A stretch of 64,000 nt of DNA from Raja brachyura (lineage: Eukaryota), in the NCBI GenBank assembly GCA_963514005.1, contig OY740786.1:68262001-68326000 (forward strand). Reading direction: 5' to 3'. The position numbers and the translations under genes are program-made. This document shows positions 30,670 through 63,637 of this stretch, piece by piece. Every line of letters starts with the position of its first letter. Within the stretch, counting starts at the first letter, position 1. The notes below the pieces were generated by a model that saw only the letters and a list, made by a program, of their open reading frames with translations, did no database searches and was not told where the DNA came from.

Positions 30670-30707
30670 TTATCTTGATTTTGCCTGGGCAAGGTTTTCT
30701 TGCCCAA
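30670..30707 (-). CDS. Candidate terminal coding exon of the coiled-coil gene (LGQENLAQAKSR*)
   Basis: CATCTTTAG acceptor; phase 1 matches the preceding exon. Alternative acceptors exist, e.g. at 30060. Confidence 0.35.
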
Positions 30708-30862
30708 CTAAAGATGGTCACTAAGCAGACATTTTCTTTGAGGGAAAAAAAACCCTTGATATATGATGCTACATTCAAAAACAATTTAATAAATATCTTC
30801 CAGAACAATGCAGAATCTTTGCTATTGACAAACACAGATCCAAACATTACATGCTTACTTAC

Positions 30863-30896
30863 GTTTTATCTTGACCACAAGATCAGTAATTGATGC
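30863..30896 (-). CDS. Small exon of the coiled-coil gene (ASITDLVVKIK)
   Basis: TTCCCTATCAG acceptor, GTAAGT donor, phase 0 in and phase 1 out. Confidence 0.6.
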
Positions 30897-31127
30897 CTGA
30901 TAGGGAATTTTGCAAAGAAAGGTGAATCAGAAGAGGAAATAATAGATTTTTTCACATATTTCTCATTTGCACTCATAATTTTACACACATGCCACATTAT
31001 GTTCATCTGATTCAGGCTATTAGTAACTTAATGAACTGTTGGTCATTTTTAATACTTGAAACAATACATCTCAACTTATGAATTTGGGGCAATAATTATG
31101 ATTGTAAATAACCATTAGTTCCTTCCA

Positions 31128-31432
31128 TTTAGTTTAGTTTAGATTTCCAGCATGTGAAACGGTCCTTTGGCCCACACTGACCATCAATCACCCTTTCACA
31201 CTAGTTCTATGTTATCCCACTTTCCCATCCACTCCCCACACACTGGGGCAATTTACAGGGGGCAATTAACCTACAAACTCGCACATCTTTGGGATGTGGG
31301 AGGAAACCAGAGCAGCAGGAGGAAGCCCATGTCGTCACAGGGAGATTGTGCAAACAGCAGAATATGATGTCAGTATTAACCTGGGTCTCTGGTGCTCTGA
31401 GGCAGCAGCTCTATCAGTTGTGCCACTGTGCC
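31128..31432 (-). mobile_element. V-SINE (HE1-like); further copies at about 17350-17485(-), 43805-44170(-), 44590-44770(-), 50005-50275(-), 53872-54176(+) and 60168-60400(+)
   Basis: Shared V-domain core (GATGTGGGAGGAAACC..AGCA on the minus strand) and (TTTAG)n tail. Confidence 0.75.
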
Positions 31433-31645
31433 ACTTCATGCATGAAAACCACATGAACTGTTTCTCTTTGCATAACTCACCTGTATATTAAAAAAACCTA
31501 ATGAGCTACATTCATTAAGGATGCTGGAATTGATTCCTGATTAATAAAGCTAATAGAATTGATCTGTACTGATTCTGCTGTAATGTCACAATATTTCAAA
31601 TAGTTGAAGATAATGGATTCCCAAAAGGATAGATTCTACTTTTAC

Positions 31646-31757
31646 CTTTACATTTTTGTTGTATTTTTGCGCTTCAGAATTTTCAGTAATCTGTTCAGTG
31701 CCAGAGGATGTAGGTTCCACAAGCTCAGTGGAGACAGCCATAGGTTTAATGGATAAA
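31646..31757 (-). CDS. Exon of the coiled-coil gene (SLSIKPMAVSTELVEPTSSGTEQITENSEAQKYNKNVK)
   Basis: TTATTTGTGCAG acceptor, AAG|GTAAAA donor; phase 2 start matches the giant-exon donor; open frame. Confidence 0.75.
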
Positions 31758-33902
31758 CTGCACAAATAATATTAACAAATCAACATGTTAATTTATGTAC
31801 ACACAACGCACAGTAAAGTTTACAGTGCTAATAAGTCTTCTAATGCTGTGCAATCAACCACAGAATAAAAAATAGATAGTAATTTTACACCAGTATTGCA
31901 TTGTTACATTGTTGTGATTTAGTATATTGTAAACTGAGGCACTGCAAATTGTTTTTTGCAATTAATGATCTAAGTGATGATTTTTCAATTGTTTAGATTT
32001 AAACTTACATCTAATTGGAGGACCAATCTATATTACAATTCATATTTCTCAAATGATCAACATGTAAGAACATTTTTCATAGTTGCAATAATTATTGTGG
32101 GGGAAACATAATGTAGCATCTGGAGAGAATATTGAAGTTTATAATCAAAGGGAAAGATATATTTTAATGTGGACAGCTTTATATTATTTGTAGAATAGAG
32201 ATAAAAGAGCTGTAAAATTCTCAGTATGATTTTTGAAAAATAACACCATTCAAATATGTCTCCATGTTTGCAACGCATATATTATAGTGGAGATATTTTA
32301 ATTTATATATTCAAAACAATAAACTATTTAATTTAAAGTTGGCGCCACCTTCTCCTCACTTGGCAGTATTTATTACAGATTCCTCATTAATGGATAAAAA
32401 TTTATTTAACTTTCATATTAGTAACATTTTCACAAAAGATCTGCTGTATTCGAACTTGTCAGTTCCCTAGTGCAGGTCTGCTATGTGAATTATTTTGTAG
32501 TTAAAAAAGTACTAAAAATAGACATAATTTGCTGTTTTCCATAGTTTTGTCTTTCCAAGCAAGTATCCATCAAACAGAGGAATAAGAAGGAAGACCACCA
32601 ATCTTGGTGGAGGAGAAGAAGGATAATAAGGAAAAATGGGAAGGAAATATTGATTAGAATAAGACAGCAGCAAGAATGACTAGTGCACTGAACATTTACT
32701 GATTGTACTTTCACTTTCACCCTAAATTAGTTCACTGTCCCTACATTTTTTCTGAACATGTACTTGGTCACCCTGATTGGGAATCCAGGCTCTTTATTAT
32801 CTAGATGGAGGTAGATGATGATGCTAACCAACTAGCATTTGAAGACTTGCTGTGACTAAAGTCTTGTTCTGTTTTTCATGGATTGGCCCTACAGATTTTC
32901 AAAACACTTTGATAACAGGCTGGCCTACTTCCACCTGGTTTCTGCTATTGCGGCAGCCTACTTGCAGGCAAGTTAGGTTGGTCAGATGTGAACACACCCT
33001 AGGTGTCTATGTGAATGTAAACTCCTCTCCACCTTCAAAAACGTAAATGTTATCAACAACTTCTCACGGCAATCATCACAACAACTCAAAATCAGAACCA
33101 ATGGCCAATTGCAAATTCAAGTCCCGGAGGCATAATTCACCTTGATAACCAACAGACTGCTTATGTGTAATTGTTCTTTGTCCCAGGAGTTCCTTCCAGT
33201 GTAAGGTGTGTTTTTATTAGCCAGAGAGTATACATGTTGGAGAATAATCTCAAGATGTGGCCAGTCATTTAGAATTGAAATGAGGAGAAATATCTTCCTG
33301 GAAATTGTTGGAATTCTCTTTCTCCAAGATCCATGGATGCCTGCTTGTTAAGTACATTCAATGTTATGGTTAATGGGGTTTTGGACATTCAGGGAAATTT
33401 TGGATAAGGGGATTGGGTACTAAACTGGACTTGAAGCACAGAATCAGCCGTGAACCATGAATGAAGGCACAAGTCGAGAGGCATACATATTTAAAATCTT
33501 ACATATTTTTCTTATTCTCTTATGTGCTTGTAGTTTAATTAAATTATAGAGGATGCAATCTCAATTAGGGCTGAACCATGAATCATGCTGATGGTGTGTC
33601 CCTATCTCACTCTTCCTCATGTTCAAAGGTCTTAGGTGTCACCTCCATTTAATTTTATTAATTAGGTGCCATGCTTCACCTGTCCTTGGTTTTTGACTGT
33701 TTTAACCTTACTCTTTAAAAAATAGATGTAGGAAGTAACTGCAGATGCTGGTTTATACCCAAGATAGACACAAAATGCTAGAGTAACTCAGCGGATCAGG
33801 CTAATTCGAACCATAAATAGGAATAAACCCTGTATTCACAACCAGGTGAAATATACAGATAATCAGGCTTGACGAGAGACAAATAGCATCTTTAATTTCT
33901 AC

Positions 33903-36900
33903 CTCTGATCAATGTAATCTTTATCCGTAAGTTCATCCTCCCAAAGTTTGGTCTCTTGATGATCGAGAGTTGCTTTGACCAATTCTTTGTCTTCTTGATG
34001 ATTTAGAGTGATCCTATTTTGCTCCTGCACCCTCTTTGACAATGGTACGGATTTTGCCTGTTGACAGGTGCCCTTAATGTATATAATTGGAGACTCAATG
34101 GCACAAACTGATGTTGTTCTTTCAGTATCAGCAATTTTTTCTATTCCTGTGTATTGTTGCTTGGGATCTCCAGCTAGCAATGTGCCTTGCCCTCTCATAA
34201 TATTTCCTATTTCTGGATATCCCATACTGTTTGTTGATTCAGATGTTTCCTGCAGCCATGTATTCCTTACTTCAGATTCAGTACAATTTTGAAAGTCACA
34301 CTTACAGTTAGTTTTAAGATTGTAGTCCTCATCGGCTACATTTAAATGTGCACAAGTTGAAAAAGTGTTCTTCTCCTTGGCTTGTTGATTTCTGTCTTGG
34401 AAATTAATTATTAATTTATTTATTGTTTCACTTTCTGTATTATTTCTCTTAGTTTTATAGATACTTAGTTGGTTTTCTGAAATTGGACCTGGACAAAATG
34501 TGGACACTTCTGGAGTACTTATTTCTCCCGCTAGGTTCCCAAGAGCCATAACTACCAATTCTGTCTCTTGCATTGTCCATTTCAAGTCTTCCTCATTCTC
34601 TGGTTGAAAGTGAATTTTAGTTGAGGTCAAATGTTCTTCTGTGGGCTCACTATCTATTAATTTAGCTTTTTTATCTACTAAACTTTCATTTTGTGAATGA
34701 TGACTTTCTGGTGGGTTTTTCATAACATTTTGTTGGTAACTGTTCTCAGAGGAAGGATCCATAGTCTGCGAATGTTCCAGTAATGCAAAACTAAAATTGT
34801 GCTCTTCTAATATTTTATCATGCAAATTACCAGTGGTTTTCACAAACATTATTCTACCATTTTCAGTGTTATCAATGGTTTGGTGCGATCTCGTTTCACT
34901 GTTTTGAAGTTCATCACCTGTTTCAAGAACGTGGTTCATAACTGCAGGAAGCATTGTATCCTTGTCTACTTCAGTAAGAGCTGCAAGGAAATTCATCATA
35001 GTGTTCTCAGATCCTGTTAATTTGTTTGGTGGGTCAGCAGCTTGAGATGAACTCCCTTGCTTTACTTTGTAACTGCAGCATGCCTCATCTATTTTCATTC
35101 CATCATTTAGCTCAGTGATTTTAATCTTTAACAGTTTTTTTTCTTGCTCAAGATTATCAATTGAAACTTGAAATCTTGAGATGTCATTCAACAATTCAGC
35201 GATCATATCATGGCAATTATTATTCTGATTTCCTAATATCTTGCTTTTGTTTTTTAGATAAACTGTCAAGTTATTGCAGGCATGTTGCTCAGCATCTATC
35301 CTTCCTTTGTGGTGAGTCACATTTAATTCAAGCATTTTTTTCTCTCTGTCAGTCTTTTCCATGGCCTTTTGTATGTTTTCATTACTGTTCTGTGATTCCT
35401 TGACTGACTCTAGATGTTGAATGTTTTGTAAATTTAAGATTTTGCTTTTATTCTTTTCTTTCAACGGCTGAACATATGATTCCAAGTCTTTTCTGCTGTC
35501 TGGGTGAATTTTAGGATGTTTTCCAGAGAAATCTGGGTTTATTAAGTTACACCGAAGGTGCACAGGTTCCATTGATACTGTACTGCTCACCTGACTTTCT
35601 GAACTATAAATGTTACTGATCTGACTCCTTTCTGTGGACTGATTAAGAATCTCCAGAAATTTTGAGCTGTCACATGTCAGAGCATTCAGCTTTTCCTGAA
35701 GTCGTTCTATTTTTTCATCAACTTCCTTTAAATCATTTGTGAGATTAGCACTTGTCCTGCAGTACATTTGCTGATTTCTGAGTAGAATTTTAAACTTTAA
35801 TAGAGACTCTTTTTCTAATTTATACTTCTCGATCAATTTATGTTGTCTTCTTGTCTCTTCCAGTGTTTTCGCGTCATCTTGTACTTCAATAGTTTCACAC
35901 ACTTCTTCTGGCTCAGAAATGTTAGCTTCATGTTCATTGAAATAGTGTTGCATTTTAAGATCACAGTCCATTTCATCTTCTGTGAGCTGTAGCAACATTT
36001 TATCTACATCAACAGATAAAGTCATGTTTCCATCCAATAGATCATCGGCCATATTTTCTAACTGGCATTTTTGCTTTTCAATTATCTGGATTTCATATTT
36101 GATGAGTCTTTGCATTTCACAGGCATTTTTCTGTTCCAGAGAAAGACAATTCTCTTTCTCAATCAGACTAGTTTCTAACAATTTCTTCTCATGTTTGTGT
36201 TTTTTAATAGACATTTCTAATTCTTCATTCTTAGTCTGGAGATCTTTAACTTTGTTTTGAAGTTGATTATTTTCTGCATCAGATTTCTCCTTCTGTACCT
36301 CCATTTGAACAGCAGGTCTGCTACAATCAAAATCATCTAATGATGCATTTCCCCCCAATTCATTAACAATGTTATCCAATGCATTTTCATGATCGAAAAG
36401 TCGTGTGTTTTCATTTTCCACAGGATCAATAATTATTGGAATATCTTTGGAAAAGTTATTCATCATTTGTGACTCACTTTTATGGACCTGTTGTTGCAAT
36501 TCCGTCAGGTTTAGTTTCAGTTCACAAACTTCAACTGTCAGCCAGTATTTTTCTTCCATAAGATTCTCAATGTATGCCGTAAGTTCTTTGTTATACTCCA
36601 TCAGTTCATTGGGCATTTTCTGCATCTGAAATTTTTCAGAGACATCTAATGTTGATGGAATAGATATATCTGATCTTTCACTTCCCAAGTGATATAACAC
36701 CTTATCAGTAAGTGGTATATTTAATACAAGATCTGGTATATTTAATACAAGGTTTACAAGATCTGTCGTTGTCTCTGCATTTTCAACAGCAATATGCACC
36801 TCACAATCTTTATCGGACTTGTCCATCAGTTCCTCTAGTAAGGCCTCAGGGCAATTTTTCCCATCATTATTTATTGCCTTCTCTTCAATTTGACGGACTT

Positions 36901-41734: not shown

Positions 41735-41822
41735 CAATGGTGTGTTGGTTCTCTGCAGTGTATTATACAGTTGAACGTCATGTTCCTGGGCTTTCCATTG
41801 TTGCCTCTGCTCATGCTTCTGC
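41735..41822 (-). CDS. Exon of the coiled-coil gene (R|QKHEQRQQWKAQEHDVQLYNTLQRTNTPL)
   Basis: TTCTTACTGTTTAG acceptor, TTG|GTGAGT donor; phase 2 in and phase 0 out links the neighbouring exons exactly. Confidence 0.8.
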
Positions 41823-44170: not shown

Positions 44171-44526
44171 TGTAGGAGCTATTTAGGTTTAGGCTAGCTA
44201 CTGTTGGCATATTATATTATTTTGTCTAGATATTTCTAGCGGTATTATTTTGAACACTTGGGGGCGGGCACTTGATGCATAGTAGGGCGTTACATATAGC
44301 GTAGCCACATGGAGTGACCAGATCAGACCAGGCACGGGAGCAAGAGTACACATTTCTTACCAGATGGGAGAGAACGGAAAGTAACAGCTTGTATGAGAAT
44401 AAGGAGTACCTGGTATGAATCATCTCTTTGTTTGTACAACTACTTCAATAAAGAATCAATTAAACTCGAAATAACGACTGGAAGATCCATTCTTTTCTAA
44501 TCTGCATAAGATCACTTCTACCTACC
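44171..44526 (+). mobile_element. Possible solo LTR next to a SINE
   Basis: Starts TGTAGGAG, has AATAAA at about 44447 and ends in an imperfect inverse (CTTCTACC/CCTACC). No clear TSD. Confidence 0.35.
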
Positions 44527-46409: not shown

Positions 46410-48699
46410 CTGTGATGAAACATATGGTCTAATAAAATTGTTCCTCTTTCATATTCTTTGTCTTTATATTAAGTTCATTGTCCTTATTGTAGCTCACTGA
46501 CCTACATAGGGGTTTTGTTCTGCAAGAATCTGATTTCAATGTAAACATTCATAAAATGTTGGGGTCTTTGGCAAGACTAACATTTAATGCCTCATTGGCA
46601 TTAATCCAAATGGCTTTCAATACCATTTAAAGATGACTGCATTGAAAGTGAATCTTGAATTACCTGTATCTAAAGCCCATAATGTGTTGCAAATTTCCTT
46701 CCCTAAGGAATTTGGTGATCAAATGGGATTTTTCAATAACCCTACTGTTCCCTGGAGACTATTACTGATACCAAGGGCTAGAAATTGCATGACTACATTT
46801 TATTTACATTGAGACAATATGTCACCTTAATGCTTTTGCAAGGATTGCACTAAATCTTCTATCGTGAATGCAGTCTGAAGAATGGTCCTGACCTGAACCG
46901 TGACCTATCCACGTGTAGGAGGGAACTACTGATGCTGATAATACGGAGATAGACACAAAATGCTGGAGTAACTCAGCGGGCCAGGCAGCAACTCAGGAGA
47001 AAAGGGATAGGTGATGTTTTGGGTCGGGACCCTTCTTCAGACTGAAAGGTAGAGGTTGGTGGGGGGGTGGGGGGGGGGGTGCTTTCAGCCTGAAGAAGGA
47101 TCCTGACCCAAAATGTCAGCAATCCATTTTCTCTAGATGCTGCCTGAATCGCTGTGTTCCTCCGGTACGTTGGGTCTTTATTTTCCTATTTGTGTTTTTG
47201 CGGAAATGAAATGAGGGGCTGAGTGGCCTACAAGGACATTGTACATTTTCTGGGTTATTGCTTTTCTTCCTCCTCCCATGGATGGAGCTTAGCCAAAGTG
47301 CGTGGCTGAGAGCAGGTCTGGAAGCTCCAGCTAAGCTGCAAGAGAGCTGGCAGAACAGACGTGACAGGAACTTAATGCCAGCCTTGCTGTCCAATTTTCT
47401 GTCACCCTATTCAAAATTACTGAGGTATGGACAAAATCAGTACATTAGCACAGGGGGTTCTAAATATGATTTCATATATTTAGAGTGATGGCTTGGGAGA
47501 GGTTGATCTCTGGCATTTATATGTATACCTTACTTAGAAACAGAAATGAGAGTGAACACTGACAGTTCCAGGTGTGGAGTCTGCATTCCCATTCAGAAAA
47601 TTTGACCCCAGTCTTACAGAATTTCCCTTACGTTTAAGAAGTGAGCTTCATGGATGTTGATAAAGAAATTCACGGCAACAGGGCACCCTATTCATCAAAG
47701 AACACAGGTTGTAGAGAGATTTGCAAAATAAAACTATCATGATTATCGGATAGACTACCTTAAGCTTTTTTGTATATTATCTTCTGACACAACAATAGCA
47801 GGTAACAAGGAGGAACTACATCAGTATTGCTTTTAGCAGAATATGTGCTGCTAAGCAGTAATGTCAAGGGCAATGTAACTTCAGATGGTAAAGTATAACA
47901 GTAATATTACACTTGTGGATTTTGAAGTATGATGGAAACAGTTTACTGTTCCTGACCAACTGTTGTCTTGAAAGGTTTCATGTCAGAGCAAATGTCTAGT
48001 CTTGCATGCTTCCATCAAAATGTATAAATAGCTTAATCTCTCAGATGTAAATATGTAAGGAATGAGACCATCTGAAAGATGAGAAGATGGTCAGTGCAAG
48101 CACTTAGGAGAAGCACCAAGAGTAAAAATAGAACATGTTTAATTACTCAAACTCCCAAAAAAATGGATAAGCAAAGAATAAATTAGAAGAAAATTCTAAT
48201 TTCAAGTTTTTAATTTCAAGTTTTCTTTCTATTCCAGCCCTTCAGTACGTTACGTGCAAAATCTAAAACTTAAATGGTTGCAGTAATTGTATCAAGATTT
48301 GAACATCTGCCAAGCTTGCTATATTTAACAAAGATGCATCTTAACACATGTTGCCAAATTATACTTTAGTTTCCTTCTGAAAATGGTTCCAGGCCTATTG
48401 CCTTACTTGCAGTTATTGAAAGCTGGAGCTCTCAATCAGTCCTTCAAAAGTTATTTATGTCGGTTACATGGATTATAGAACATTGTCACTGTTTTTTCTT
48501 AAAACTGAGCCTATCATAATCCCTGCACTAAATCTGAATGAAACACATTCTGTTGATTATTTTGAAAGCTTGTCAAAACGATTTGTTTTTCAAAGGAGAA
48601 ATTAAGGAATGTGTGCATACATTTTGTTTAGGCAATGTATGCTCTTTCCCGTTGTGAAACTGGGTTCCTCAAAGTTGATGCTGAACTTGGAAAAGTATA

Positions 48700-49520
48700 A
48701 ATGGTTTAGGTTTATTATTGTTAGGTGGACCATGGTACACTGAAGAGCTTTGTTTTGTTATCCAATCAGATCAGATAATACTTTACATAAATACAAGCAA
48801 GTACAATTGGTCGAGCAAAGGGAAAGATAACCAGTGTGAATATATTTCTCAACATTGCAACATTAGAAGTTAATTGGACAGTACCCGCCTAGCTTATGGA
48901 AGGACCGTTCAGAAGCCTGATAACAAAAGGGAACAAGCTGTTCCTGTGTCTGGTGGTGCACACTTTCAAGCTTCTGTACCTTCTGCCACATTGGAACAGG
49001 GAGTTGAAGGAATGATTGGGGTGGGACCAGTCTTTGATTACGCTGGCTGCTTTTCTGAGGCAGCGTGAAGTGTAGATGGAGTTAATGGTGCGTTGTCTGG
49101 TATGAGTGATGGACTGGGCTACAGTCACAACTCTGTAATTTCTTGGACAGAGCTGTTCCCAAACCAACCTGACAACATGCTATCTATGGTGCATTTGTAG
49201 AAGTTTGTCAGAGTTATTGAAGACATGCCAAATTTCCGCAGTCCTCTAAGGATGTAGAGGCACTGGTCTACCTTATTGGCTGTTGCTTCAATTTAGATGG
49301 CCGACGACAGATTGTGGTAATATTAACGGCAAAACACATGAAATTTTTAATAATTTTCACTCTAGCACCATTGATGATTGGATCCGTCTCATCATTGTTT
49401 ATGATCTTGTCCACCACAGTTGTGTGATCTGCAAACTTGCAGATGGAGTTTGAGGCGTATTTGCACGCACAGTCGTGAGTGTACAGGGAATAGAGTAGGG
49501 GATTACAATGCATCCTTGAG
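48700..49520 (-). repeat. Old Rex1-like LINE fragment
   Basis: PLLYSLYTHDC..KFADHTTVV and IYTSRCLRKAASVIKDWSHP...GRRYRS...NSLFP. Confidence 0.75.
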
Positions 49521-52500
49521 AATTATTGCTATTTAAAAGGGACCTGACCTTACCCAGGTCGCTGATGGGGAGTCTGAGGTGCCCGTATTATTTTGGATAC
49601 TTTATAATAGCTCCCACCTCCCATGCTGCCAATTTCCTCAGACTTCATCCTCTCGCCTTTGATATCCACCACTCCCCCTACTGCTGATCATTTTCTGAAT
49701 TGATCCTTACCTTCTAAGTGTTTAGCTTCCTTCCTCCCACAATCATCTCACTCCTGTTGTATTTCCATTCAGCAAACACCCATTTCTTCACCCAAATCAA
49801 GTGAGAGCTTTCAGCTATCTGAAAGAAGATCATCAGGATGGTCTCATGGTGAGGGAACTAGCCAACCAAGAAGGACAGGTATAAATCAATACAACCCACT
49901 CTCCACCCAGCCCTAAATCAATTGGCCAACTGATTTCCATGGTGAGCTCGCCACTCGCCTTCATGTAAGCTCATGGAGGCAAAGCCTTTTGTGAGCCTCC
50001 TCATAGTTTAGTTTGGAGATAGAGCATGTAAACAGGCCCTCTGGGTCCATGCTGACCAACAATCTCCCATGCACTAGTAATATTCTACACACTAGGGACA
50101 ATTTACAGATGCCAATTAACCTACAAACCCGCACGTCTTTGGAATGTGGGAGGAAACCGGGCACTCAGAGGAAGTCCACATGGTCACAGAGAGAAGGTAC
50201 AAACTCCACACAGAGAGCACCCAAGGTCAAGATCGAACCAGGGTCTCTGGTACTGTAGCCTACTGTGCTACCCCAAACATGAGCTATTCTATTGTTCATG
50301 ATGTTTCATGGCCTCTGCGCAATAGATCCTCAGTGCTGCCTTGTACAAAATGGATGCAGGCTCCTTATGTATTGCTGCTTTAGCTCATTGACTACAAACG
50401 TTCCAAAGCTGGATATTAAAACCATTCTATATCACTGGTTAGGTGTCATCTGGAACAGTGCTGGCCACTGCAAGGATGGAACATGGCCTGATAAAGTTGA
50501 CCAGAATGATACAAGGGATGAGGAGCTTTAGCAATGTGGGAAAGGCTGTTGTCCTTGGAGCAAAAGGAGAACTTCTTTGATGCACTGCCTGAACCTTGGC
50601 GGTAATCAAAAATCGAATGAGATGCATACTTGAAATGGGTACTTTCTCATGTCTTTCAGGAGGGCAGGGAAGTGGAACTGAAATAAAAACAGAAAATGTT
50701 GTAAATACTCAGAAGGGAAACAGAGTCAATTCTTTCTGGTCATTTATCCTTTGTCAGAATTGGGAAGTGGAATTAATTGCAAAGTGCTTTCAAAAGACGT
50801 TATAGTTGGATTAATAATCTCCCTCTGGATATATGATTCCAAGTCCCTGATATATTTGTTAAAATGGGATGGATATAAACTAAACAATTTCAAAGCTGCC
50901 GCAATGAGGAAGACCTCACAGAGTAGAGACGGGGATGATGGAGATTTTTGCATATCTTTCATTCATTTGTTCTATATCTTTCTATATCACCGTCTATATA
51001 TCTTGTTTCCCTTTCCCCCGACTCTCAGTCTGAAGAAGGGTCTCGACCAGAAACGTTACCTACTTCTTTTCCCCAGAGAAGCTGCCGGACTCGCTGAGTT
51101 ACTACAGGTTTTTGTGTCTATCCTTCAAGCAAGTGGGTTGTATTGGGCAAATACTACGTCACAATCAGAGGAGATTCATAAAGAAAACATCTCACATTAG
51201 CTTTATACACACATATGAAGTCCTTTCTCTTCACCAACAGACGTCAACAACTTTATGTAATTAGCTGTAACTACAAACTGAACCACTGAAAGTGGCTGTC
51301 AAAGTCACTATGACCATCCAGAGGCCCCCTTTCAGCTTGCATTAGGTAACATCAGCCACATCCCACAACACTCAGACATATCCAAGATCAAAGCTCTCCT
51401 CCCAAGGAGAAACATCCACATCTTTCTCCATGAATAGTGCAAAGCAAGATGAGAGAGTACAAAGTTTCACCGCCAAACCTTTACATGGTCCGGATTATCA
51501 GGACCATGCTATCTATATCCATCTGAAAAGAATTCCACTCCTCCACCCCAACCTGAAACATCATCTATCCATGTTCTCCAGGGATGCTGTGTTACTCCAG
51601 CACTATAATATATACAATGATATTCAGTATGCACTTGGTGCTGCAGGCCAAAGATGAATTTCTTCCCCTTTCCATTTTTAAACATTCCGTACGGCTATTT
51701 AATAACTTTCTCTATCATCGGCAAAGACCTGTGGAGATAAAGCTCAACACTTCCTATTCTTTCAACCCGATAACATTGTACCAACTAATTTATTTTACTT
51801 ACTAATTCTTTCTACAAAAATGAATAATTTCATATGCGTAGAAAGGAACTGCAGATGCTTGTTTATACTGAAGATAGACACAAAGTGTTGGAGTAACTCA
51901 GCGGGTCAGGTAGCATCTCTGGAGAAAAAGGATTAGCATCTATCGGAATCATTTCATACTTTGTTTTAAATTTGAACTGCACGTTTCACCCTTTTTTATA
52001 TAATTCTACAACTTCTTGAGTTATTTCGCATTTCCAAGTTTCATAAAACGTAACTAAATGGTAGTAAAAATAGAAGGTACTAAAATTAAAAGAGAACTGG
52101 TCACAAATGAACATGCATCCAGTTATAGCCAGGAATGAGTAGGTTAACATATGATGAGGGTTTGACGGCACTGGGCCTGTACTTGCTAGAGTTTAGAAGA
52201 ATGAGGGGGGACCTCATTGAAACGTACAGAATAGTGAAAGGCTTGGATAGATGTTTAATAGTTAGCACAGACAATGGGCTGAATAACCTTTTTCCGTGCT
52301 GTATTATTATCTGGCCGTATGGTTGTATATTTACTGCAATAGCAGTTGCCATGATCATGGCATCTCCATGCTTTATATAAGAAGGGGTCGGAAGATAATT
52401 TCTTCCTGCTAGTTCTTCCTTGAATGGAGTTATGTGCCAGTACCTCCTGCAAGAAAGGCGTGGGGTAGTGGGATCCTTGCAAAATGGTTGGATAAAACAG

Positions 52501-52786
52501 CTGTCAATACAGAATAGCTGATTATCCATGTTTGAGATGGAAGCGTTCTACGTTATGAAGAGGAGATGTAATGAATTATGGAACAGAGATTGCTGGATTA
52601 GGAGCGGAACCGAGAAAGGAAAAGTTGGCGATAGCCGTCATTGAGAATGGATGTGGTTCATCACTGTGCAGCTGGTTTGAGAGCTATTTTTTCACCTTAA
52701 TGACTGGTAAGATTTCTCATGGTCTTACAACCATGTTCCGGGCAGTGTAATGTTTAGTCGCTTCTTTGCACTACAGGTGAAACTAA

Positions 52787-53088
52787 AGGGCCTGTCCAAC
52801 TTGGCCATCATTTGCGCGTCACGAAGATGGCGCGCAAAGATTTTGTACATCACAAAATACATTTACGCGTCAGGACGCACATGATGCGCGCATGGTGCGC
52901 ATTACGCGCGCATGGTGCGTGGTGACAGGCAGTGACGCGCGGTCGCGCGTGGCGTGCAACCGCGTGTCACTGCCTGTCACCACGCACCATGTCCGCGTAA
53001 TGCGCACCTGCGCACATCATGTGCGTCTTGACACGTAAATGATGTCGGGTAAATTACGCGCAAATGACGGCCAAGCGGGACAGGCCCT
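52787..53088. mobile_element. PIF/Harbinger-type (Tourist-like) fold-back MITE
   Basis: TIRs AGGGCCTGTCC..CTTGGCC.TCATTTGCGCGT, TAA TSD (52784-52786 and 53089-53091), almost entirely self-complementary. Confidence 0.85.
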
Positions 53089-53245
53089 TAATGCTAAGTG
53101 GACTTGGTCTAATGAGGGGAGGAGGCTGTTTCAATGCATCTGCACAGCCATATCAGGGACTTCCCAAGTGTCCTGGTGCCTGCTTCACTACCTCCTTCTT
53201 AGGCTGTTTCTTCGGTGCAAGTTCATCCTGACACTGCGCTTCACC

Positions 53246-53403
53246 TGTAAATTATATGGACTTGAAGCTTGTATTAATTCTACCATTCGGTGATTTACGC
53301 AACTTAAGGTTTGGACTGATGGCAGATGCCTTCTGTCTAAACCTTAGTTGTGTAAATCACTGAATGGTAGAGCTATTACGTGCTGCAAGTCCATATAATT
53401 ACA
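53246..53403. repeat. 158-bp imperfect palindrome/hairpin of unknown origin
   Basis: ~77-nt arms TGTAAATTATATGGACTTG...GGCA / TGCC...CAAGTCCATATAATTACA with a minimal loop. Confidence 0.85.
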
Positions 53404-54214
53404 ATCAAGAGCCAGCTTGCAAATTGCCCGCTGCGTGAGTTAGCATCAGCTGACGTGTGAAGTACATGACTCAGCTGCTGAAATACGGGCCTGGCTTCAA
53501 CTGGATTTTAGGTTGGAGTTTCTTCCAGAAGCAAAAGACAGTGAATCCGTATGGTCAAGTCACAGCAAGGTAGATGTTTTCATTCCATTAGTATGTGATG
53601 ATTATTTTAACCAGCAATGTGCAAACTTGAGAAGGCTACATAGCAGGCATAGCAAATATATCAGCACACAATGACAGGTGTCAGCATGGACATGTGCAAG
53701 AAGCAGAGTGCTGGATTCGATTCAAAGTCAAAGGAACTAGAAGTAAGAGTTTGCAACTGCAAACACTTTATTTGTCCCTTGAAAAAATATAATTTCAGCT
53801 AAGTGGTATAAAAATCAAGGTTTTCCACAAATCTAGAGACACATATCCACTTGAACCCATTAATCACTTGTGGGTGGCACAGTGGCACAAAGTTAGCGAT
53901 GTTGCCTTACAGCACCAGAAACCGGGGTTCAATCCTGACTATAGGTTCTGTCCGTACGGAGTTTATATGTTCTCCCTGTGACAGCGTGGGTTTTCTCTGT
54001 GTGCTCCAGTTTCCTCCCGAATTCCAAAGGTGTTAAGGTTTGTAGGTTAGTTGGCTTCTATAAATTGTTCCTAGGGTGTAGGGTAGAACTAGTGCATGGG
54101 TGATTTTTGGTTAGCGCAAACTTGGTGGGCTGAAGGGCTTGTTTCCACACTGTATCTCTAAAATAAAATAAACTAAATCAGGTGCTTGATATTTCATCAA
54201 ATAATTGACAGGAC

Positions 54215-56530
54215 CATAATGTAAACCTCTCTCAATTAAGCATTTTCTGTACTCCATTAAACATTCCTCGGCCCACTTGCCCAGCTGATGAAGATCATGT
54301 TGCAATTCTTGATAACCATCTTCACTGTCTCATACCACCTATTTTTGTGTAATCTGCAAATGTATTAATCATGCCTTGTGCAATCTTATCCAAATTGTTG
54401 ACATAGATGACATACAAAATGGGCCCAACACCAATCCCTGAGGCACACCACTAGACACAGGACACCAGAATGAAAAATGACTTTTGACACCATCCTCTGC
54501 TTTCTATGATGAAGACAATTTTGTATCCAGTTAGCTAGCTTTACCTGGATCCCAAGTGATCTTACTTCCAGATCAACCTACTGTGTGAATCCTTACCAAA
54601 GGCCTTACTAAAGTCCATATAGACTACATGTACCACCCTAACTTAATTAACCTTCTTGGTTACTTCTTCAACCAGTTTGTAAGACATGATCTCCCATAAA
54701 CAAAACCATACTGATTATCCCTAATCAACCCGTCTGACCAATGCACGTACATCCTATCCTTCAGAATCCTTTTCAGTAACTTTCCTAGCACAGATATCTA
54801 CCTTTCTTCTATACCTTTCCATAATGTCCTTGGATATATCTGATCAGGCCTGGGAAATTGATCTAACTTCATATGTCTTAAAACATCTATTACCTCCTGG
54901 ACTGTCTTACAGATTATTTTCAAGACAGCCCCATTAACTGTCCAAGTCCCCTCAGCTTTATTTCTTTCTAAATGGAACAAGAACATGCATACTTTGAACT
55001 TTTACTATCATCCTTTAAAAAGCACTCCACTCTTTGGCTGTTCCTTTGCCCACAAACAATCTATCCCAATCGACCATTGCATGTTCCTGTCTAATACTAT
55101 TAAAGTTGGCCTTGCCCCAATTTTTAACTTTTACTTATGGACCAGCCCTGTCCTTATCCATTACTATTTCGCAACTAATAGAACTGAGCTCGCAGGTCCC
55201 AAGAGGCTCACCGATTAACATTTCAGCCACTTACCCTAAAAGTAGGCCCTCTCCGTTGTAAGGTGCTCTACATATTGCCTGAGGAAACCTTCCTGAACAC
55301 ACTTGATAAATTCCACCCCATTAAGCTCTTGGCACCGTGGCAGACTCAGTCTATATTGGGAAAGTTAAAATCCCCAACTCTGTCAACCTTATTAGTCTTG
55401 CAGCTGTCTGCAACCTCCCAGCATATATGTTCCCCTAATTCCAATTGACTATTTGTGGGCCTATCGTACAATCCCAATAAGGTGATCATCCCCTTTTTAT
55501 TTTTCATCTCCACTCATATAACCTCACAGAATGATATTTGAGTAATGCCATCTCGGACTACTGCCAAGATGTTTTCCTTAATCAATAAAGCAAGTTCTCC
55601 CTCCTCTATTAACCCCCACCGCTATCTCCACCTTGCCTATAGCTCCTGTACCTTGGAACATTAGCTGCCATAGTTTCTCATATAATTTTATAAACTTCTG
55701 TCACAGCTCCCTTCAGTCTATAGAGCTCCAGAAACAACAATCCAAGTTTGTTCAATCTCTTCTTCTAGTTAATACACTCTGATCCAGGCAGCATCGTGGT
55801 AAACTTTTTTGCACTCTCTCCAAAGCCTCCACAGCATTCCTGTAAAGGAGCAACCAGAACTGCACACAATACACCAAATGCAGCTTTACCAAAGTTTTGT
55901 AAAGTGGCAACAATATTTGCTGATTCTTATGCTCAAATGCCCTGGCCCAGTAAGGCAAGTATGTCACACGCCTTCTTACTCACTCTTATGTATCTTGTGT
56001 TGCTACTTTCAGGGAGTTATGGACATGGACCCCAAGATCCCTCTGCCCACCAATGCTGTTGGGGGTCCTGCCATTAACTGTATACTTTCCCCTTACTTTT
56101 GACCTCCCAAAGTTCAACACCTCACACTTGTGACATCTACCATTTCATCCATATCCATAATTGATCTATATCTTGCAGTATCCTTTGAAAGACTTCATTG
56201 TCTGCAACTCGACTAATCTTGGTGTCATCTGCAAACATACCAACTAACCCACCTGCATCTAAGTCATTTATTGAAATATCACAAACAACAGGGGTTCCAG
56301 CAATGATCTTTGTTGAACACTACTACACAGCACACAGATCTCCACAAAATAATCCCCTTCCAATACCCTCTGCCTATGCAAAGCAGTACTTAATCTTCTA
56401 TTGAGATCCAAGCATCTTAATCTTCTGAGTCAGCCTACCACAAGGGACCTTTACTAAAGTCCATGTAGACAATATCCATTGCCCTATCTTAATCAATTAT
56501 ACTCTTCACACTCTCAAAAAATGCAATTGA
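54215..56530 (-). repeat. Degraded CR1 LINE fragments (at least two copies)
   Basis: LYKTLVKLHLVYCVQFW...ALERVQ, KLDQFPRPDQIYPRTLW, DLHQLGKWAEE; duplicated TTACTAAAGTCCAT motif. Confidence 0.75.
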
Positions 56531-57057
56531 GTTTGTAAGACTTGAATTTACTCTTGAACTTCTGCAGCTGTCTGGCTGAGAGCAGCCTTGTTCGGCAACT
56601 TAAATGTCCAGGAATCAAGAAGATTACAAAAAGTGGTGGACATCACCCGGTCCCTCATTGCACTCCTACCATTGGGAGTAAGGTATATGAGTCTAAAAAA
56701 CACAACCACCAGGTTCAAGAATAGCTTCTTCCCAACAACAATCAGTCTTTTGAAAACTACAGAATACTAACCTCAATTATGAACTATGGACTGGCTGTCT
56801 TTGGTTGCACTAAGACATCTGGCTTTTTTGCACTAGTATTGGGATTATTAATTCATTGAATTGTCTCGACCCGAAATGTCACCCATTCCTTCTCTCCAGA
56901 GTTGCTGCCTGTCCCGCTGAGTTACTCCAGCATTTTGTGTTTATCTATTTGTATAGTGTTTGCAGGCTGTTATGCTGCTCCAAGTAAGAATTTAATTGTT
57001 TTGTTTATGACAATTAAACACTCATGACTTGACTCTTGACATGACCTGCCCCACGTA

Positions 57058-58697
57058 TAGTACCTGCCATAATGTTTGGGACAAAGACCCATCATTTATT
57101 TATTTGCCTCTGTACTCCACAATTTGAGATTTGTAATAGAAAAAAACCACATGTGCTTAAAGTGCACATTGTCAGATTTTAATAAAGGCCATTTTTATAC
57201 ATTTTAGTTTCACCATGTAGAAATTGCAGCTGTGTTTATACATAGTCCCCCCATTTCAGGACACCATAATGTTGGGGACACATGGCTTCACAGGCGTTTG
57301 TAATTGCTCAGGTGTGTTTAATTGCCTCCTTAATGCAGGTATAAGAGAGCTCTCAACACCCAGTCTTTCCATCACCTGTGGAAACTTTTATTGCTGTTTA
57401 TCAACATGAGGATCAAAGTTGTGCCAATGAAAGTCAAAGAAGCTGTTATGAGACTGGGAAACAAGAATAAAACTGTTGGAGACATCAGCCAAACCTTAGG
57501 CTTACCAAAATCAACTGTTTGGAACATCATTAAGAAGAAAGAGAGCACTGGGGACCTTACTAATCGCAGATGGACTGGCAGGCCAAGGAAGATCTCCACA
57601 GCCAATAACAGAAGAATTCTCTCTTTTATAAAGAAAACTCCCTCAAACACCTGTCCGACAGATCAGAAGCACTCTTCAGGAGTCAGGTGTGGATTTGACA
57701 ATGACCACTGTCCACAGACGACTACATACACAGAAATACAGAGGCTACACTGCAAGATGCAAACCACTGGTTAGCCGCAAAAATAGGATGGCCAGGTTAC
57801 AGTTTGCTAAAAAGAACTTAACAGGGCAACCACAGTTCTGGAACAAGATCTCGTGGACAGAAGAGACGAAGATTAACTTCTATCAGAGTGATGGCAAGAA
57901 CAAAGTATGGAGGAGAGAGGGAACTGCCCAAGATCCAAAGCATACCACCTCATCTTTGAAACACGGTGGTGGAGGTGTTATGGCCTGGGCATGTATGACT
58001 GCTGAAGGTACTGGCTCACTTATCTTCATTGATGACACAACTGCTGATGGTTGTAACATAATGAATTCTGAAGCGTATAGACACATCCTATCTGCTCAAG
58101 TTCTAACAAATGCCCCAAAACCCATTGACCGGTGGTTCATTCTACAGCAAGACAATTATCCAAAACATACTGCTGAAGCAACAAAAGAGTTTTTCAAAGC
58201 TAAAAAATTGTCAATTCTTGAGTGGTCAAGTATATCACCCAATCTGAACACAATTGAGCATACCTTTTGTATGCTGAAGAGAAAACTGTAAGGGATTGGC
58301 CCACAAAACAAGCATAAGCTAAAGATGGCTGCAGTACAGGCCTGGCAGAGCATCGCCAGAGAAGACACCCAGCAACTGGTGATGTCCATGAATTGCAGAC
58401 TTCACGCAGTCATTGCATGCAAAGGATATGCAACAAAATACTAAACATGACTACTTTCATTTACATGACATTGCTGTGTCCCAAACATTATGGTGCCCTG
58501 AAATGGGGAGACTATGTATAAACACTGCTGTAATTTCTACATGGTGAAATCAAAATGTATAAAAAGGCCTTTATTAAAATCTGACAATGTGCACTTTAAC
58601 CACATGTGATTTATTCTATTACAAATCTCAAATTGTAGAGTACAGATGCAAATAAAGAAATAATGGGTCTTTGTCCCAAACATTATGGTGGGCACTG
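57058..58697 (+). mobile_element. Tc1-family DNA transposon, full length (1.64 kb), with long IR/DR TIRs
   Basis: TA flanks; ~220-bp TIRs (CAGTGCCCACCATAATGTTTGGGACAAAGACCC, intact at the right end); inner direct repeat CCATAATGTT.GGGACA at about 57265 and 58475-58492. Confidence 0.95.
57406..58444 (+). pseudogene. Tc1 transposase, frameshifted with a damaged catalytic triad
   Basis: HTH and GRPRK in 57391-57774; WTEETK (D to E), KHGGGGVMAW, QQDNYPKH and SPNLNTIEH in 57689-58291. Confidence 0.9.
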
Positions 58698-59590
58698 TAA
58701 AATCATAGATAGACACAAAATGATGGAGTAACTCAGCGGAACAGGCAGCATCTCTGGTATGGGCGACGTTTCGGGTCTAGACCTTTCTTCAGATATAAAA
58801 TCTTTGGTTTTAACCAGCATCTGCAGTTCCTTCCTTCACATAAAATCATGTTGACTGCCCCATTTTAGTCCATTCTCTTCCAAATGTGAGTAAATCTTAT
58901 CGCTAAGAATCCTCTCCGATAGCTTCCCGACCATGGATGCTCTGTAATTTTCTGAGTTATCCACATTTCCTTTCACGCGGTAGCCATGCTGCACACAAAA
59001 TCTTCCAAAAATATATATTTTTATTGAATAGTGCTGTAAAACATGCTCTGGAGCCACAATCTGAAATTACCCTACTTCAATTTGACCTAGTGCAGGACAT
59101 AAAATTGGAACCCCCATCTTTTTATCACCCAAACAATAGCAGCCTTGCTACTGAAGGCTTATCATGCATCCAGGAGGTCCAAATTTGTGTGCAGCTATCA
59201 CCATTTCTAGTAGGTGAAACCAAGTGGTGTCTATAGCGCTATCAACATTTATGGATCAAATCATGAGGCAGTGTTTGTTGACCGAGGTCTCAGCTTCTAT
59301 TGCAGCGCAAGTAAAATATATTCAAATGGTGCAGTGGAGGTCCAGACATTTGCTTTGTGAAATCAGCTTTGTTCTATTAAAGCTCAGACTGCTGAGATCA
59401 CAAATCTATACCACTGCACAAAACAAGCATTGTGGATATCACAGCAATCCACCTGTCTCTGGTATAGCTAGGGAACAACCAGGTGACTGGTAATTTATTT
59501 GTGGAACACACATCCAACATCCTTTCTTGGTTGTCATCATTTATAATTCCACCAGTGTCCACGCATGTAAGTGCCTATCAACTAGTCCCA

Positions 59591-59705
59591 GGGGTGGTCT
59601 GCCCTGTTTCGACTAATGCAATCAACTCGACGTGCACAAATGGAAGATCAAATAGAACAAGTTGTCCAACAACTTTAGGCTGTGCACGCCACACGAAAGA
59701 AGAAG
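59591..59705 (+). mobile_element. Short retroposon with (AAG)n tail and 11-bp TSD
   Basis: TSD AACTAGTCCCA at 59580-59590 and 59706-59716; homologous to 7226-7365. Confidence 0.8.
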
Positions 59706-60525
59706 AACTAGTCCCACTTGTGACAAGGCGGTGCAGTCTGACCTAAATCTTCGAGCTTAAGAGCAGCTCATGGTTGACCTCACTTTCTGCCTCCCCAACT
59801 TCAAGAAAGTCACATTTCACCTCCTCTACTGTAGCAAATGCAAGAGTATCGAGTAGAATGTTGCAGGTGAAAGCAAAGGCAGGCATACTCTAGATATACA
59901 TCATTTGCAAAGACTAAATGGTCAGTGATTGTTTGCTATTGATCTTGTTAGGATGCATAAAAATGATTGAAAGCGCGATGATTTGGTTAGGTCTAGTTTA
60001 CATTAGTATGAAATGAAATACAACGAAAGTAAACTAGGAAATGCAGTGGAATGGGGAATTTACAAAATATCTCATTCATGGGGTGAGGTGCTCTATCTGG
60101 CCAGCATTTCATGAGGGTTCCTCATTGCCCTTGAGAAGTTGATGCAGTGTTGTCATCTTAAACCACTGGGCGACACTGTGGTGCAGCAAAAGAGCTGCTG
60201 CCTCACAGCGCCAATGTCCCGGGTTCGATCCTGACAATGGGTGCTGTCTGTGTGTAATTTGCATATTCATCCTGTGACCACGTGGGTTTCCTCCAAGTGT
60301 TCCGGTTTCCTCCCACATCCCAAAGACATGCAGATTTGTAGGTTAATTGGCCCTCTGGACTCGAGGGGCTGAAGGGCTGTTTCCATGCTGTATCTTTGAA
60401 CTAATTATAATATTGAACAAATCAAGACTTACCTATCGGATTTGAACATTAACAATATTATCCCACGGTTGCAGAGTATTTGAATGACATTTACTGCATA
60501 ATGCCTGAGGTTATTCTTCCCAGAT

Positions 60526-60620
60526 CAGTCTGAAGAAGGGTCTCGACCCGAAACATCACCTATTCCTTCGCTCCATAGATGCTGCCTCACCCGCTGAGTT
60601 TCTCCAGCATTTTTGTCTAC
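60526..60620 (+). mobile_element. Penelope-derived repeat with a hammerhead-like core; other copies near 27185(-), 29226(+), 30349(-), 39708(-), 41253(-), 46872(+), 47010(-), 47088(+), 51027(+), 56863(+) and 58761(-)
   Basis: CAGT-CTGAAGA-A-GGGTCTCGACCC-GAAA-CATC-ACC followed by the shared AGATGCTGCCT..CC.GCTGAGTT.CTCCAGCATTTT tail. Confidence 0.8.
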
Positions 60621-63541
60621 CATGCATTTCTCTTTGAAAGCTACCTTTATTTGGTGCACACCACACAAAATACTGTCCTCCTGGAGCAAGTAATACCTTG
60701 ATTAGCCTTGGCCACACATTGCTAATCATGTTGATTAGCAGGCAATGCAACACTCAGACCCTAACACCATTAGAAATAACAGGTGCAAATCAATTTCACG
60801 TTGATATCAGGGGGCATATTTTTGGGGACTATTGCATTTAAAAGTTGTGTTTGTCAATCTTAGTTTTAAGATTTCAGACCAGTTATATGAAGGATAAAAC
60901 TCACACATGATCCTTAACCTTTGGAAAACTTAAAACTCTTTTAAAATTATGTTTTAATAGTTAGTAATTTTTATTATGTACATTATTGAAAAATGTATCT
61001 GAATTAATATATATTTTAATTTTCTGTTCCATTTTCTGCTTTGACTATTTAGTGATACAGACTCTTTATTAAAGTTAAAAGCACCATGTATATATTTGAA
61101 CAACAATTATGCAGAGAACTACCAATCCTATGGACCCATCCCACTGAGTGACATGTCTTACTTGTGACATCATTGCTTTTATTGCCAGAAAGTTGGTGCT
61201 CTCCTTTCTCCTAGACTACTTAGATCCCACACGGAGATTCTCTGCCCAGACAGCACTTGAAGACACACAGCGAGAGAACCTGTGGCCAGGAGAGGCATTA
61301 ATATCTGCAAAATTTAGATAATTTGTTCAAAAAGGTAAAGAATGAAGTGCATGTTTGTGAAGTAATATGTCAAATGGCAGGAAATTTCTTTACAGGCTTT
61401 TCAAATGTGTGCATTTGTTTTTGAATTATTTAAACGTAGCAAATGTACAATAATTATTAGACAGCTGTTTCATTTATTGGAATAAATATAATCACCATGT
61501 ATCAGACAAAGATTCAAATATTATTTTGTTTGGGATTTCTGAGCTTCCTACCATTAGCTTTCGGATATTATCTTTCAAGAACTAAAGTTAGGAGTCAAAC
61601 TTCTAAATTCACTCATTATATCAATACGTAACGTGACATTATTTTTTGTCAACATCTTGCAATTCTGGATGTGTGGTTCTTTGCCATTTACTATTTATTA
61701 ATAACAGTGAATATTATCCATAACATTACAGATTCATTTTATATCCTCGCCATAGCTGGTGTATTTTTATGTATTTCCTTTGAACCAAATGTTTTTGTCA
61801 TTTTAAATAATGTTGGATTAATTTGTTTTAAAAAATTCACCAATATCATGGAGAGAATTAGATTTTGCCAATTCAAAAATCAGACAATTTTAGTCCTTAA
61901 ATATCTAAGAACATTTAATATTCAAAGATCGAACTTTGTTCCAAAATAATTAAGGCTTTTCCACAGAAAAAAAATATATACAGGTTTTCCGTGCTTCGAT
62001 GCTTTAAAAACATTTAATGCTTTAAATATGTGGCTTAATGGAACAAATATTTCATGTCACTTGCATTCAAATACCCCATCTGAATAAAAGTGTGCTTGAA
62101 GCATTAAATATACTTACTTTCTTGAGTTGACAGTAATCCTAGCCATAAATAGTAAATATGTCTGCGTAATCTCAAATAGAAAATAAATCATTATTAATAT
62201 CTTACTATTTGTTATAGCTCCTTTTCTTATTTTAATTTGCAAACGGATACTAGGATTTTGAATGACCAAAATAAGCTCTGAAGTAATAAAGCTGATGAGT
62301 TAGATTATATCAATTAGTGTTAGCATCAAGCCTATTTTTAGACCATGGATTTAAAGTTGGTCTGATATCCATCTCTCCAAAACATTTGCTGTCGGCAATG
62401 GTGTTCGTAACAAGCTTAAATCTAGCTTCTTTGTAAACTGATAGTCAACCACTTTAAAGTTACAGAGCACAGTCCAAAAATACAGTATAGAGACTAAACT
62501 ATCAAAATTGATTGTAATCATGTATATTGTGCGTGGCTATGTAAGAAAATACTCCAGTGCAACAGTTATGCAGTTAGTTTGTCACTATTAAGAATTAAGT
62601 TTCAGGGCTGTAAATATAACTGAAGAAACAGTTTGACCCCAGGCTTCTGTACTGTCAGTTGATGACCGTTACTAAAATATCGCTGTTAGGTTACAAATAT
62701 AATAAATATAGCACACTTCAGTTCTTTCAATTTCCAGGTAACTAACTGCAGTAAAGATACAATATTTTATTTTTTGGCATATGTTTGAGCTTACCAGGGA
62801 GTACACAGGGTTCCTTACACTCAGTTTATTTGGAAATTTGATGAGCAGTGCCAGGTTTTACATAAAGCAATTCAGAAGCAGAGCTAACTTCTATGTTACA
62901 TGTAGTTAATAGCATTCTAGCAATATGCCTCGGATCCAACGTCTGAAGATCAACCAAAGCTTTAACTATTTTTTTTTTCCTTTTCAACACTACTGATCCT
63001 GAGAACTGCTGATTAAGAATTTAAATTTGACGGCCAACTATGAGCAATTTTACGCTGTGGCTGCACTTAATCTGTGGATGTTATCCAAGGTCACTTCAGA
63101 CAGGATTCCTGGAACCAACTGAGAAATGTGAGAGTGCCACTTCATTGGCTTGGGTGAATCAGGTCCCACAAATGAAAAAGAAACGTGCTTGCTTACACAT
63201 TATGCTTTACAGTCAACTACAATTAACATTTTCAACATTAGAACACATTCTATTACGTAGGACAGGTCAGGAGATATGTTTTCAATGGCATTTTGCTTCT
63301 TTTTAACATGGCAACTGTTGAAACCTAACTTTCGCAATTTAATAATTAATGTTTCTACTAGAATGCTCTAGAGATAACAAACGAGAAAGATCTGTGCAAT
63401 CTTTATTTCAGAAAACCTAACGGTATAAGGCGTGTGGCGGAGTAAAGTTCAGCTGCTGTTGTTCTGAAGTGTTGGCTCATCGGAAGTGATCTGTTACCGT
63501 GGAACTGGTTGTGTCATCCTGCTCCCTTAGCCGCTGCAGCC

Positions 63542-63637
63542 ATGGATAAATCCACACAAGAGCTCTTCTTGAACTTTATGGTGGTTTTGATGACCGTGCT
63601 ACTTATGTGGCTACTTGTTAAGTCCTATCAGGAGTGA
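63542..63637 (+). CDS. SLN: Sarcolipin, SERCA-regulating micropeptide (31 aa)
   Basis: [31 protein letters not shown]: canonical length, STQELFxNF start, hydrophobic TM segment ending MWLLV and (R/K)SYQ tail. Strong Kozak GCAGCCATGG; upstream acceptor-like TCTTTATTTCAG ending at 63411. Confidence 0.97.

Follow-up and report, generated by a model that had tools for sequence, protein, structure and literature searches.

The 64,000-nt window of the Raja brachyura genome examined here (C6:68262001-68326000, contig OY740786.1) carries the gene for sarcolipin (SLN), a micropeptide regulator of SERCA, and, on the opposite strand, most of a long coiled-coil gene that we refer to as the host. On the gene model, SLN is nested antisense in an intron of the host. 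The host is probably a highly derived third ohnolog of the CEP85 family, next to CEP85 and CEP85L, in which case the nesting of the micropeptide would be older than both vertebrate genome duplications (1R and 2R). A first-pass annotation of the window had proposed the same overall reading, a third CEP85-family ohnolog hosting SLN, and this is supported by the register of a shared intron, synteny, the position of the first coding exon and the range of species carrying the gene. What was observed directly is the structure of the exons, the order of the genes, the phases of the introns, the CaaX end and, on the gene model, the nesting; paralogon assignment, farnesylation and the roles of the CEP85 domains are taken from the literature.

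The complete host model comprises seven coding exons on the reverse strand and encodes 2,219 amino acids with zero internal stops, ending in the CaaX sequence CMIQ. The three exons recognised initially, now exons 2 to 4, retained their coordinates, their AG/GT ends and their in-frame join without a stop. Exon 2 (46409-46315, 95 nt, phase 0 to 2) has a split Arg codon at its end, and no part of the gene is better conserved (69-81% between skate and sharks), exon 3 (41822-41735, 88 nt, phase 2 to 0) has Gln as its first whole codon, and exon 4 (39499-33903, 5,597 nt) is a single open frame of about 1,866 codons, coiled-coil-like across roughly its first 1,400 residues by a crude heptad score. 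Zero Pfam families were found above cut-off in exon 4, a PDB sequence search with it gave 0 matches, and self-BLASTP at E 0.01 revealed no internal repeats in the protein. The gene had been taken to reach only to about 30670; mapping the proteins of relatives back onto the genome extended it by three further exons, namely exon 5 (31757-31646, 112 nt, phase 2 to 0), exon 6 (30896-30863, 34 nt, phase 0 to 1) and the last coding exon (26886-26765), which starts in phase 1 and ends with CMIQ and the stop. AATAAA signals follow downstream of the stop at 26137 and 25975. An exon-like stretch near 30670 occurs in none of the protein models and was rejected as a host exon.

Coding exon 1 falls beyond the window, on the reverse strand at extended positions 82763-82152 (window numbering continued past 64000; C6:68344763-68344152). 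It spans 612 nt (204 codons), is 91% identical to residues 1-201 of the Leucoraja model P0007 and ends at a GT donor in phase 0; a splice-acceptor-like site is also present 37 nt upstream of its ATG. In the longest models (P0007, P0012, P0004) the N-terminal 200 residues map to this exon and not inside the window, and candidate upstream exons within 46410-63500 were discarded, as no annotated N-terminus maps convincingly there. The join of exon 1 to exon 2 is present in the database models of Leucoraja erinacea, Scyliorhinus canicula, S. torazame and Callorhinchus milii. Intron 1 occupies extended positions 46410-82151 (46410..64000 within the window), is 35,742 nt long and in phase 0, and contains the SLN open reading frame (ORF) on the forward strand at 63542..63637 (31 aa plus stop), separated from exons 1 and 2 by 18.5 kb and 17.1 kb, respectively. 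SLN matches the Pfam family Sarcolipin (PF05366) at E 1e-18 and 67.1 bits against a cut-off of 26.4, and this locus was the only SLN match in the genome search. Since exon 1 is located beyond SLN, the latter lies inside host intron 1 and does not merely face the host. The proposed check for an exon 1 past SLN came out in favour, and of the earlier picture of a host whose 5' end points toward SLN the orientation holds and the simple adjacency does not. The splice across SLN is taken from the gene models of the four species, and the position of SLN was observed in this skate only.

The host has orthologs in several groups of cartilaginous fish. Among 7,996 candidates scored, exon 4 had six relatives, all from skates or sharks, with 41-91% identity, most of which also match both small exons; matches of annotated skate and shark proteins indicate that these exons are not due to chance. 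The labels of these relatives are uninformative ('kinesin-related protein 4-like', 'uncharacterized'), and their clusters add Leucoraja and a second catshark. Altogether, skates, an electric ray, four genera of sharks and a chimaera yielded relatives, as had been anticipated for other cartilaginous fish. The gene changes fast, with a skate-shark identity of 34-60% in the long exon vs 74% for CEP85, and no protein matches were obtained from bony vertebrates in a search that covered proteins and left bony-fish genomes themselves outside. The initial suggestion that the gene was lost in mammals is based on these absent protein matches and on the mouse annotation list discussed below. The literature searched, comprising few subscription papers and leaving outside a little-skate list of 19 cartilaginous-fish-only ohnologs, holds no account of the host gene or of the nesting of SLN.

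The arrangement is mirrored at the locus of the SLN paralog phospholamban (PLN). In the R. brachyura genome PLN is found at C5:50,324,666 (+) with CEP85L exons (-) on either side, in an 84,471-nt phase-0 intron following the large 5' exon of CEP85L, which is the slot that SLN has in the host; PLN within CEP85L has also been described in mammals (PMC13619452). SLC35F exons lie on the forward strand at C6:68.218-68.241 Mb and C5:49.998-50.112 Mb (all 10 genome matches are on C5 or C6), and both the host and CEP85L, on the reverse strand, are placed tail-to-tail with SLC35F, ending 48 kb and 105 kb downstream, respectively. The paralogous neighbours SLC35F1/F2 and PLN/SLN have the same order and orientation at both loci, so that the expected synteny, RAB39A-SLC35F2-host/SLN mirroring SLC35F1-CEP85L/PLN, was recovered. 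CEP85 itself is on C31, with no SLC35F neighbour, and the intron after its large 5' exon is 478 nt long and has no peptide-like antisense ORF. On C6 the order is RAB39A-like (-), SLC35F2 (+), host (-) with SLN (+), KBTBD3-like (-), ELMOD1-like (-) and ALKBH8 (+), with RAB39A about 43 kb from SLC35F2. Pfam backs the Ras, BTB-BACK-Kelch and ALKBH8_N assignments, and exact paralog names were given from position; for the latter and for the ELMOD1 label we presume identity from position plus familiar motifs. In mouse the order is Rab39, Slc35f2, Sln and Elmod1, and the list given in that source has no gene between Slc35f2, Sln and Elmod1 (PMC3338648).

A few additional observations concern these loci. 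The KBTBD3-like BTB-BACK-Kelch gene (C6:68370221-68371840, -) has the same orientation as the host and is situated about 25 kb upstream of its exon 1; the two may share a 5' exon or be joined by read-through, given that S. torazame host models are filed as kbtbd3 isoforms. A weak match to the phospholamban profile at C16:54723381-54723494 (E 0.59, with a stop inside) is probably due to chance. A stretch at C7:12402912-12403085 (-) was considered as a fourth member of the CEP85 family and rejected; it is a copy of a single CEP85L exon with flanking intron, beside retroelement remains and with no other CEP85L exon within 80 kb.

The architecture of the host also resembles that of the family. The intron phases are 0,2,0,2,0,1 in the host and 0,2,0,0,0,2,0,0,0,1 in CEP85, and CEP85L agrees with CEP85 in the exons placed (one short CEP85L exon remaining unplaced); all three genes have phases 0,2,0 after a large 5' exon and a last intron in phase 1. 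Host exon 1, predicted to be mostly disordered and helical at its 3' end, is the counterpart of the large 5' exon of CEP85 and CEP85L, exons 2 and 3 measure 95/88 nt in the host, 131/118 nt in CEP85 and 131/109 nt in CEP85L, and exon 4 occupies the place of several short coiled-coil exons in CEP85. The position of the phase-2 intron is exact between the host and CEP85, and the proposed test of whether this intron, immediately before the Gln codon, is common to the host and CEP85/CEP85L came out in favour, with the codons in register. The split codon encodes Ser instead of Arg in CEP85L of this skate (C5:50263304 / 50249762) and of several sharks; elasmobranch CEP85L is just 38% identical to CEP85. 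As inferred from frame only, the CEP85 exon at C31:27512135 apparently uses a GC donor, and the CEP85L exon end at C5:50220823 was likewise placed at a GC site.

At the C-terminus, CMIQ or CMVQ is found in 6 of 14 host proteins (4 species), the other 8 stopping earlier or ending differently, while C-x-T-Q ends 71 of 78 full-length CEP85 proteins (among 120 listed of 270 matches) and CITQ ends 17 of 18 CEP85L proteins. The residues preceding the CaaX sequence show no alignment between the host and CEP85/CEP85L. Both CEP85 and CEP85L have been reported as farnesylated, as they lose label under farnesyltransferase inhibition (PMC12315405). In S. canicula the models P0010, P0012 and P0013 stop after exon 6 and lack the CaaX sequence, which S. 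torazame models retain; this may reflect an alternative 3' end or an artefact of the models.

Regarding protein sequence, hhalign comparison of the host N-terminal alignment (6 sequences) with 25 family proteins returned E 8.6e-4 and a probability of 23.6% over 87 columns, and put the host and family phase-2 codons in register. When the surroundings of the phase-2 codon in 36 CEP85/CEP85L proteins were made into an ungapped profile and this was slid along 7 host proteins (1,005-2,256 positions per protein), the best position was the host phase-2 codon in six of them and the same codon came second in the seventh (z 3.5-4.7). Across 9 windows and 6 proteins, the rank of this anchor was 1-16 with the CEP85 profile, 1-36 with the joint profile and 1-199 with the CEP85L profile. 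Only the phase-2 intron, which had been named beforehand, lands on a host intron among the 10 CEP85 introns tested, and simple arithmetic puts the chance of such a coincidence at about 1 in 2,200 for an intron specified in this way and at about 1 in 80 when any pair of the same phase counts. With the CEP85 sub-profile, the true window beats all 1,363 same-protein decoys and 2,100 shuffles in three of the seven host proteins.

A number of results weigh against this homology. In the other four host proteins 3-16 decoys score higher than the true window, the joint profile with composition correction places it above all decoys in none of the seven, and the CEP85L-only profile gives the window's own protein -4.5 bits, a value reached or exceeded by 1,358 of 1,363 decoys. 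The gapped joint-family profile peaks in the same protein at residues 320-400 and not at the anchor, and in an all-against-all ungapped scan ordinary heptad matches outscore the anchored one, which comes 3rd (21 aa) or 5th (28 aa). When the slide was run in reverse, just 12 of the 36 family proteins gave the true register first place, and 27 gave it a place in the top three. In addition, the bounds of the profile windows were set after the alignments had been seen, and the orthologs are not independent of one another. The full-length CEP85 hidden Markov model (HMM) gives at most 2.2 bits against host proteins, and CC4_CEP85 (PF24555, the STIL-binding coiled coil) has no Pfam match in them; a genome search for this family yielded 6 matches, none on C6. 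Exon-wise CEP85 profiles found no consistent CC4 site in the host, a partial look-alike at residues 648-675 ranking just 8th-9th. A blind profile search of 1.84 billion proteins returned 4 matches, all of them host orthologs and none CEP85, and an atlas search with residues 46-150 of P0006 gave generic coiled-coil clusters only. The CEP85 exon-2 motif DSGDT had no match over 138 kb upstream of host exon 2 (75 bits in the C31 control), and the phase-0 introns flanking the phase-2 one match only with 2-codon shifts.

Of the checks proposed in the first-pass annotation, one did not come out fully in favour: the significant profile match to the CEP85 family was obtained only in the pairwise hhalign comparison and not at the database level. 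Two further candidates for likeness were set aside: a short K-x-S-S motif of host exon 1, resembling CEP85/CEP85L, did no better than reversed controls, and several collinear look-alikes of later CEP85 coils in the long exon were indistinguishable from heptad matches and are not claimed. Sequence alone is insufficient for homology, and most of the weight is carried jointly by position, architecture and register. Because the Pfam-defining CC4 domain was sought and not found, we class the host as a derived variant and not as an ordinary member of the CEP85 family.

It could be argued that the host is an unrelated coiled-coil gene which arose or landed around SLN in the cartilaginous-fish stem, with a CEP85 likeness that is heptad noise. 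The lack of a significant database match and the failure of the anchored match to come top in the all-against-all scan would fit such an origin, CaaX ends arise easily, and phase 0 introns and AG|G splits are common. However, we consider it unlikely, as chance would have to account for the host lying on the matching strand in the slot that separates SLC35F from the peptide, for a peptide in the equivalent phase-0 intron behind a large, disordered 5' exon, for phases 0-2-0 with a best-of-2,000 register on the phase-2 codon, and for a phase-1 last intron together with a C-x-x-Q end.

Regarding the age of the nesting, skate loci were assigned to quadruplicates through their neighbours RAB39A, MAN1 and CNKSR, with paralog names inferred from position. 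In paralogon 12, MAN1A1 (human 6:119.2 Mb) belongs to quad A, MAN1C1 and CNKSR1 (1:25.6 and 26.2 Mb) to quad B and RAB39A (11:107.9 Mb) to quad D, and 1R separates (A,B) from (C,D); SLC35F and CEP85 have no entry in the part of the tables searched (PMC8040251). In the R. brachyura genome, PLN has MAN1-family exons at a distance of 0.5 Mb, and CEP85 has such exons at 1.1 Mb and a CNKSR exon at 0.2 Mb. By these published assignments, the host/SLN and CEP85L/PLN loci fall on different quadruplicates of paralogon 12 / CLG-K. In the little skate, Rab39a is on chromosome 6 and Cep85 on 26, and the corresponding table lists LER6 as 1-alpha and LER5/8/26 as 2-alpha/beta (LER26 with question marks), which places them on opposite sides of 1R (PMC10115646). 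This placement would make CEP85L and CEP85 sisters from 2R, the host having split from both at 1R, and nesting common to quads A and D would be older than 1R and lost from the CEP85 copy. The proposal that the nesting predates the genome duplications is based on published paralogon maps.

Alternatively, the host may have come from CEP85L by a segmental copy of SLC35F, CEP85L and the peptide after or between the duplications, the nesting then being only as old as the PLN/SLN split. Such a copy would be compatible with a block defined by only three linked gene pairs, with skate chromosome 6 being a fusion of several ancestral groups, and with the short, peptide-free intron of CEP85 and its surroundings devoid of SLC35F. 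Nevertheless, it seems very unlikely, given that RAB39A belongs to quad D of the same paralogon as MAN1A1 (A) and CNKSR1 (B), and that the host block scores higher against CEP85 than against elasmobranch CEP85L, where a recent copy of CEP85L predicts otherwise. Least probable of all is that the exon beyond SLN belongs to a separate transcript (e.g., a KBTBD3 read-through), with the host starting in the interval that separates exon 2 from SLN. Exon 1 is missing from the Amblyraja and Rhinoraja models, which, like several shark models, start at or near exon 2 with unrelated N-termini; this speaks against the nesting, as does the kbtbd3 isoform label given by NCBI to the S. torazame host models. 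On the other side, the models of four species join exons 1 and 2 in frame at one and the same residue, conservation to catshark and chimaera is 62-72% over the final 40 residues of exon 1, these residues form one predicted helix with exons 2-3, and the N-termini of the shorter models are mutually dissimilar.

If the host is a third CEP85 ohnolog, the following history may be envisaged. Before 1R a single block would have held SLC35F tail-to-tail with CEP85, and the intron of CEP85 that follows its large 5' exon would have carried, in antisense orientation, a micropeptide regulating SERCA. From this block 1R would have produced the SLC35F2/host/SLN and SLC35F1/CEP85L/PLN blocks, and 2R would have split the latter into CEP85L and CEP85, the CEP85 copy losing peptide and transporter. 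Cartilaginous fish would have retained the host, and mammals SLN at the same spot without an annotated host. No functional link between SLN and the host need be assumed; most likely SLN has its own promoter and simply stayed in place. SLN, PLN and the insect sarcolambans have been reported to descend from one ancestral gene (10.1101/2020.07.19.211243). Because PLN and SLN are so short, neither trees nor similarity searches are reliable for them, and the date of their split and their ancestral site are hard to settle. A shared host intron would date the split to 1R and name a precise site at which to seek the ancestral peptide in jawless fish and invertebrate chordates. We lean, with some reserve, toward a CEP85 intron as the ancestral home of PLN and SLN, these two being 1R ohnologs, with the pre-vertebrate peptide still antisense in a CEP85 intron of lamprey, hagfish, amphioxus or beyond, and toward cartilaginous fish having made the third CEP85 a farnesylated rod of 2,200 residues with a new role. 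If so, an unnamed 2,200-aa protein of sharks, rays and chimaeras would be identified as a retained ohnolog missed by similarity-based screens, and SLN would be a nested gene that outlived its host in mammals.

Any function of the host protein can be proposed only tentatively. It is possible that about 1,400 coiled-coil residues of the protein form a rod that a farnesylated C-terminus anchors to a membrane, with an N-terminal helix that keeps part of the Nek2A-binding region and without STIL recruitment, the protein acting as a spacer or scaffold and not in centriole duplication. Such a rod would present the CEP85-derived helix at the end far from the membrane anchor. The conserved block, from the end of exon 1 to exon 3, is predicted as a single helix, and AlphaFold2 modelling of the N-terminal 299 aa (mean pLDDT 55) gave one long helix at 167-269. 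A working comparison, with no homology claimed, is offered by CENP-F, whose long coiled-coil rod likewise ends in C-x-x-Q. CENPF is among the proteins listed as farnesylated (PMC12315405). The Nek2A-binding region of human CEP85 comprises residues 257-433, followed by a centrosome-localisation region at 434-476 (PMC4582193), and the host block corresponds to the middle of the former. Plk1 phosphorylates CEP85 within the Nek2A-binding region (PMC6317306), and CC4 of CEP85 binds STIL (PMC5928214).

Apart from the host and SLN, broken mobile elements are dense in the window at 1-29000 and 57300-58300. From motifs in the ORF listing, we take these to include LINE-type reverse transcriptase frames (102-1511, 7753-9045 and 27835-28959), a Gypsy-like integrase region (about 23200-25400), a DIRS-like element (about 12300-16200, -) and a Tc1-like transposase (57334-58288).

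Compared with known systems, the host stands closest in arrangement to the CEP85L/PLN locus, with which it shares a position antisense to the peptide, a tail-to-tail placement with SLC35F, the peptide in the same phase-0 intron, phases 0-2-0, a phase-1 last intron and a CaaX end. It differs from CEP85L in length (2,219 vs about 800 aa), in having one 5.6-kb exon where CEP85L has several short ones, in having no CC4 match and in its weak sequence score, notably for the skate host proteins. CEP85 (CCDC21) gives the best sequence match for the block from the end of exon 1 to exon 3 and has a CaaX end as well, whereas CC4 and the localisation region 434-476 of CEP85 are undetectable in the host. 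Finally, the mammalian SLN locus has RAB39A-like, SLC35F2, SLN, ELMOD1-like and ALKBH8 genes in the same order as the skate and, presumably, on the same relative strands, while the skate interval also contains the host and the KBTBD3-like gene.

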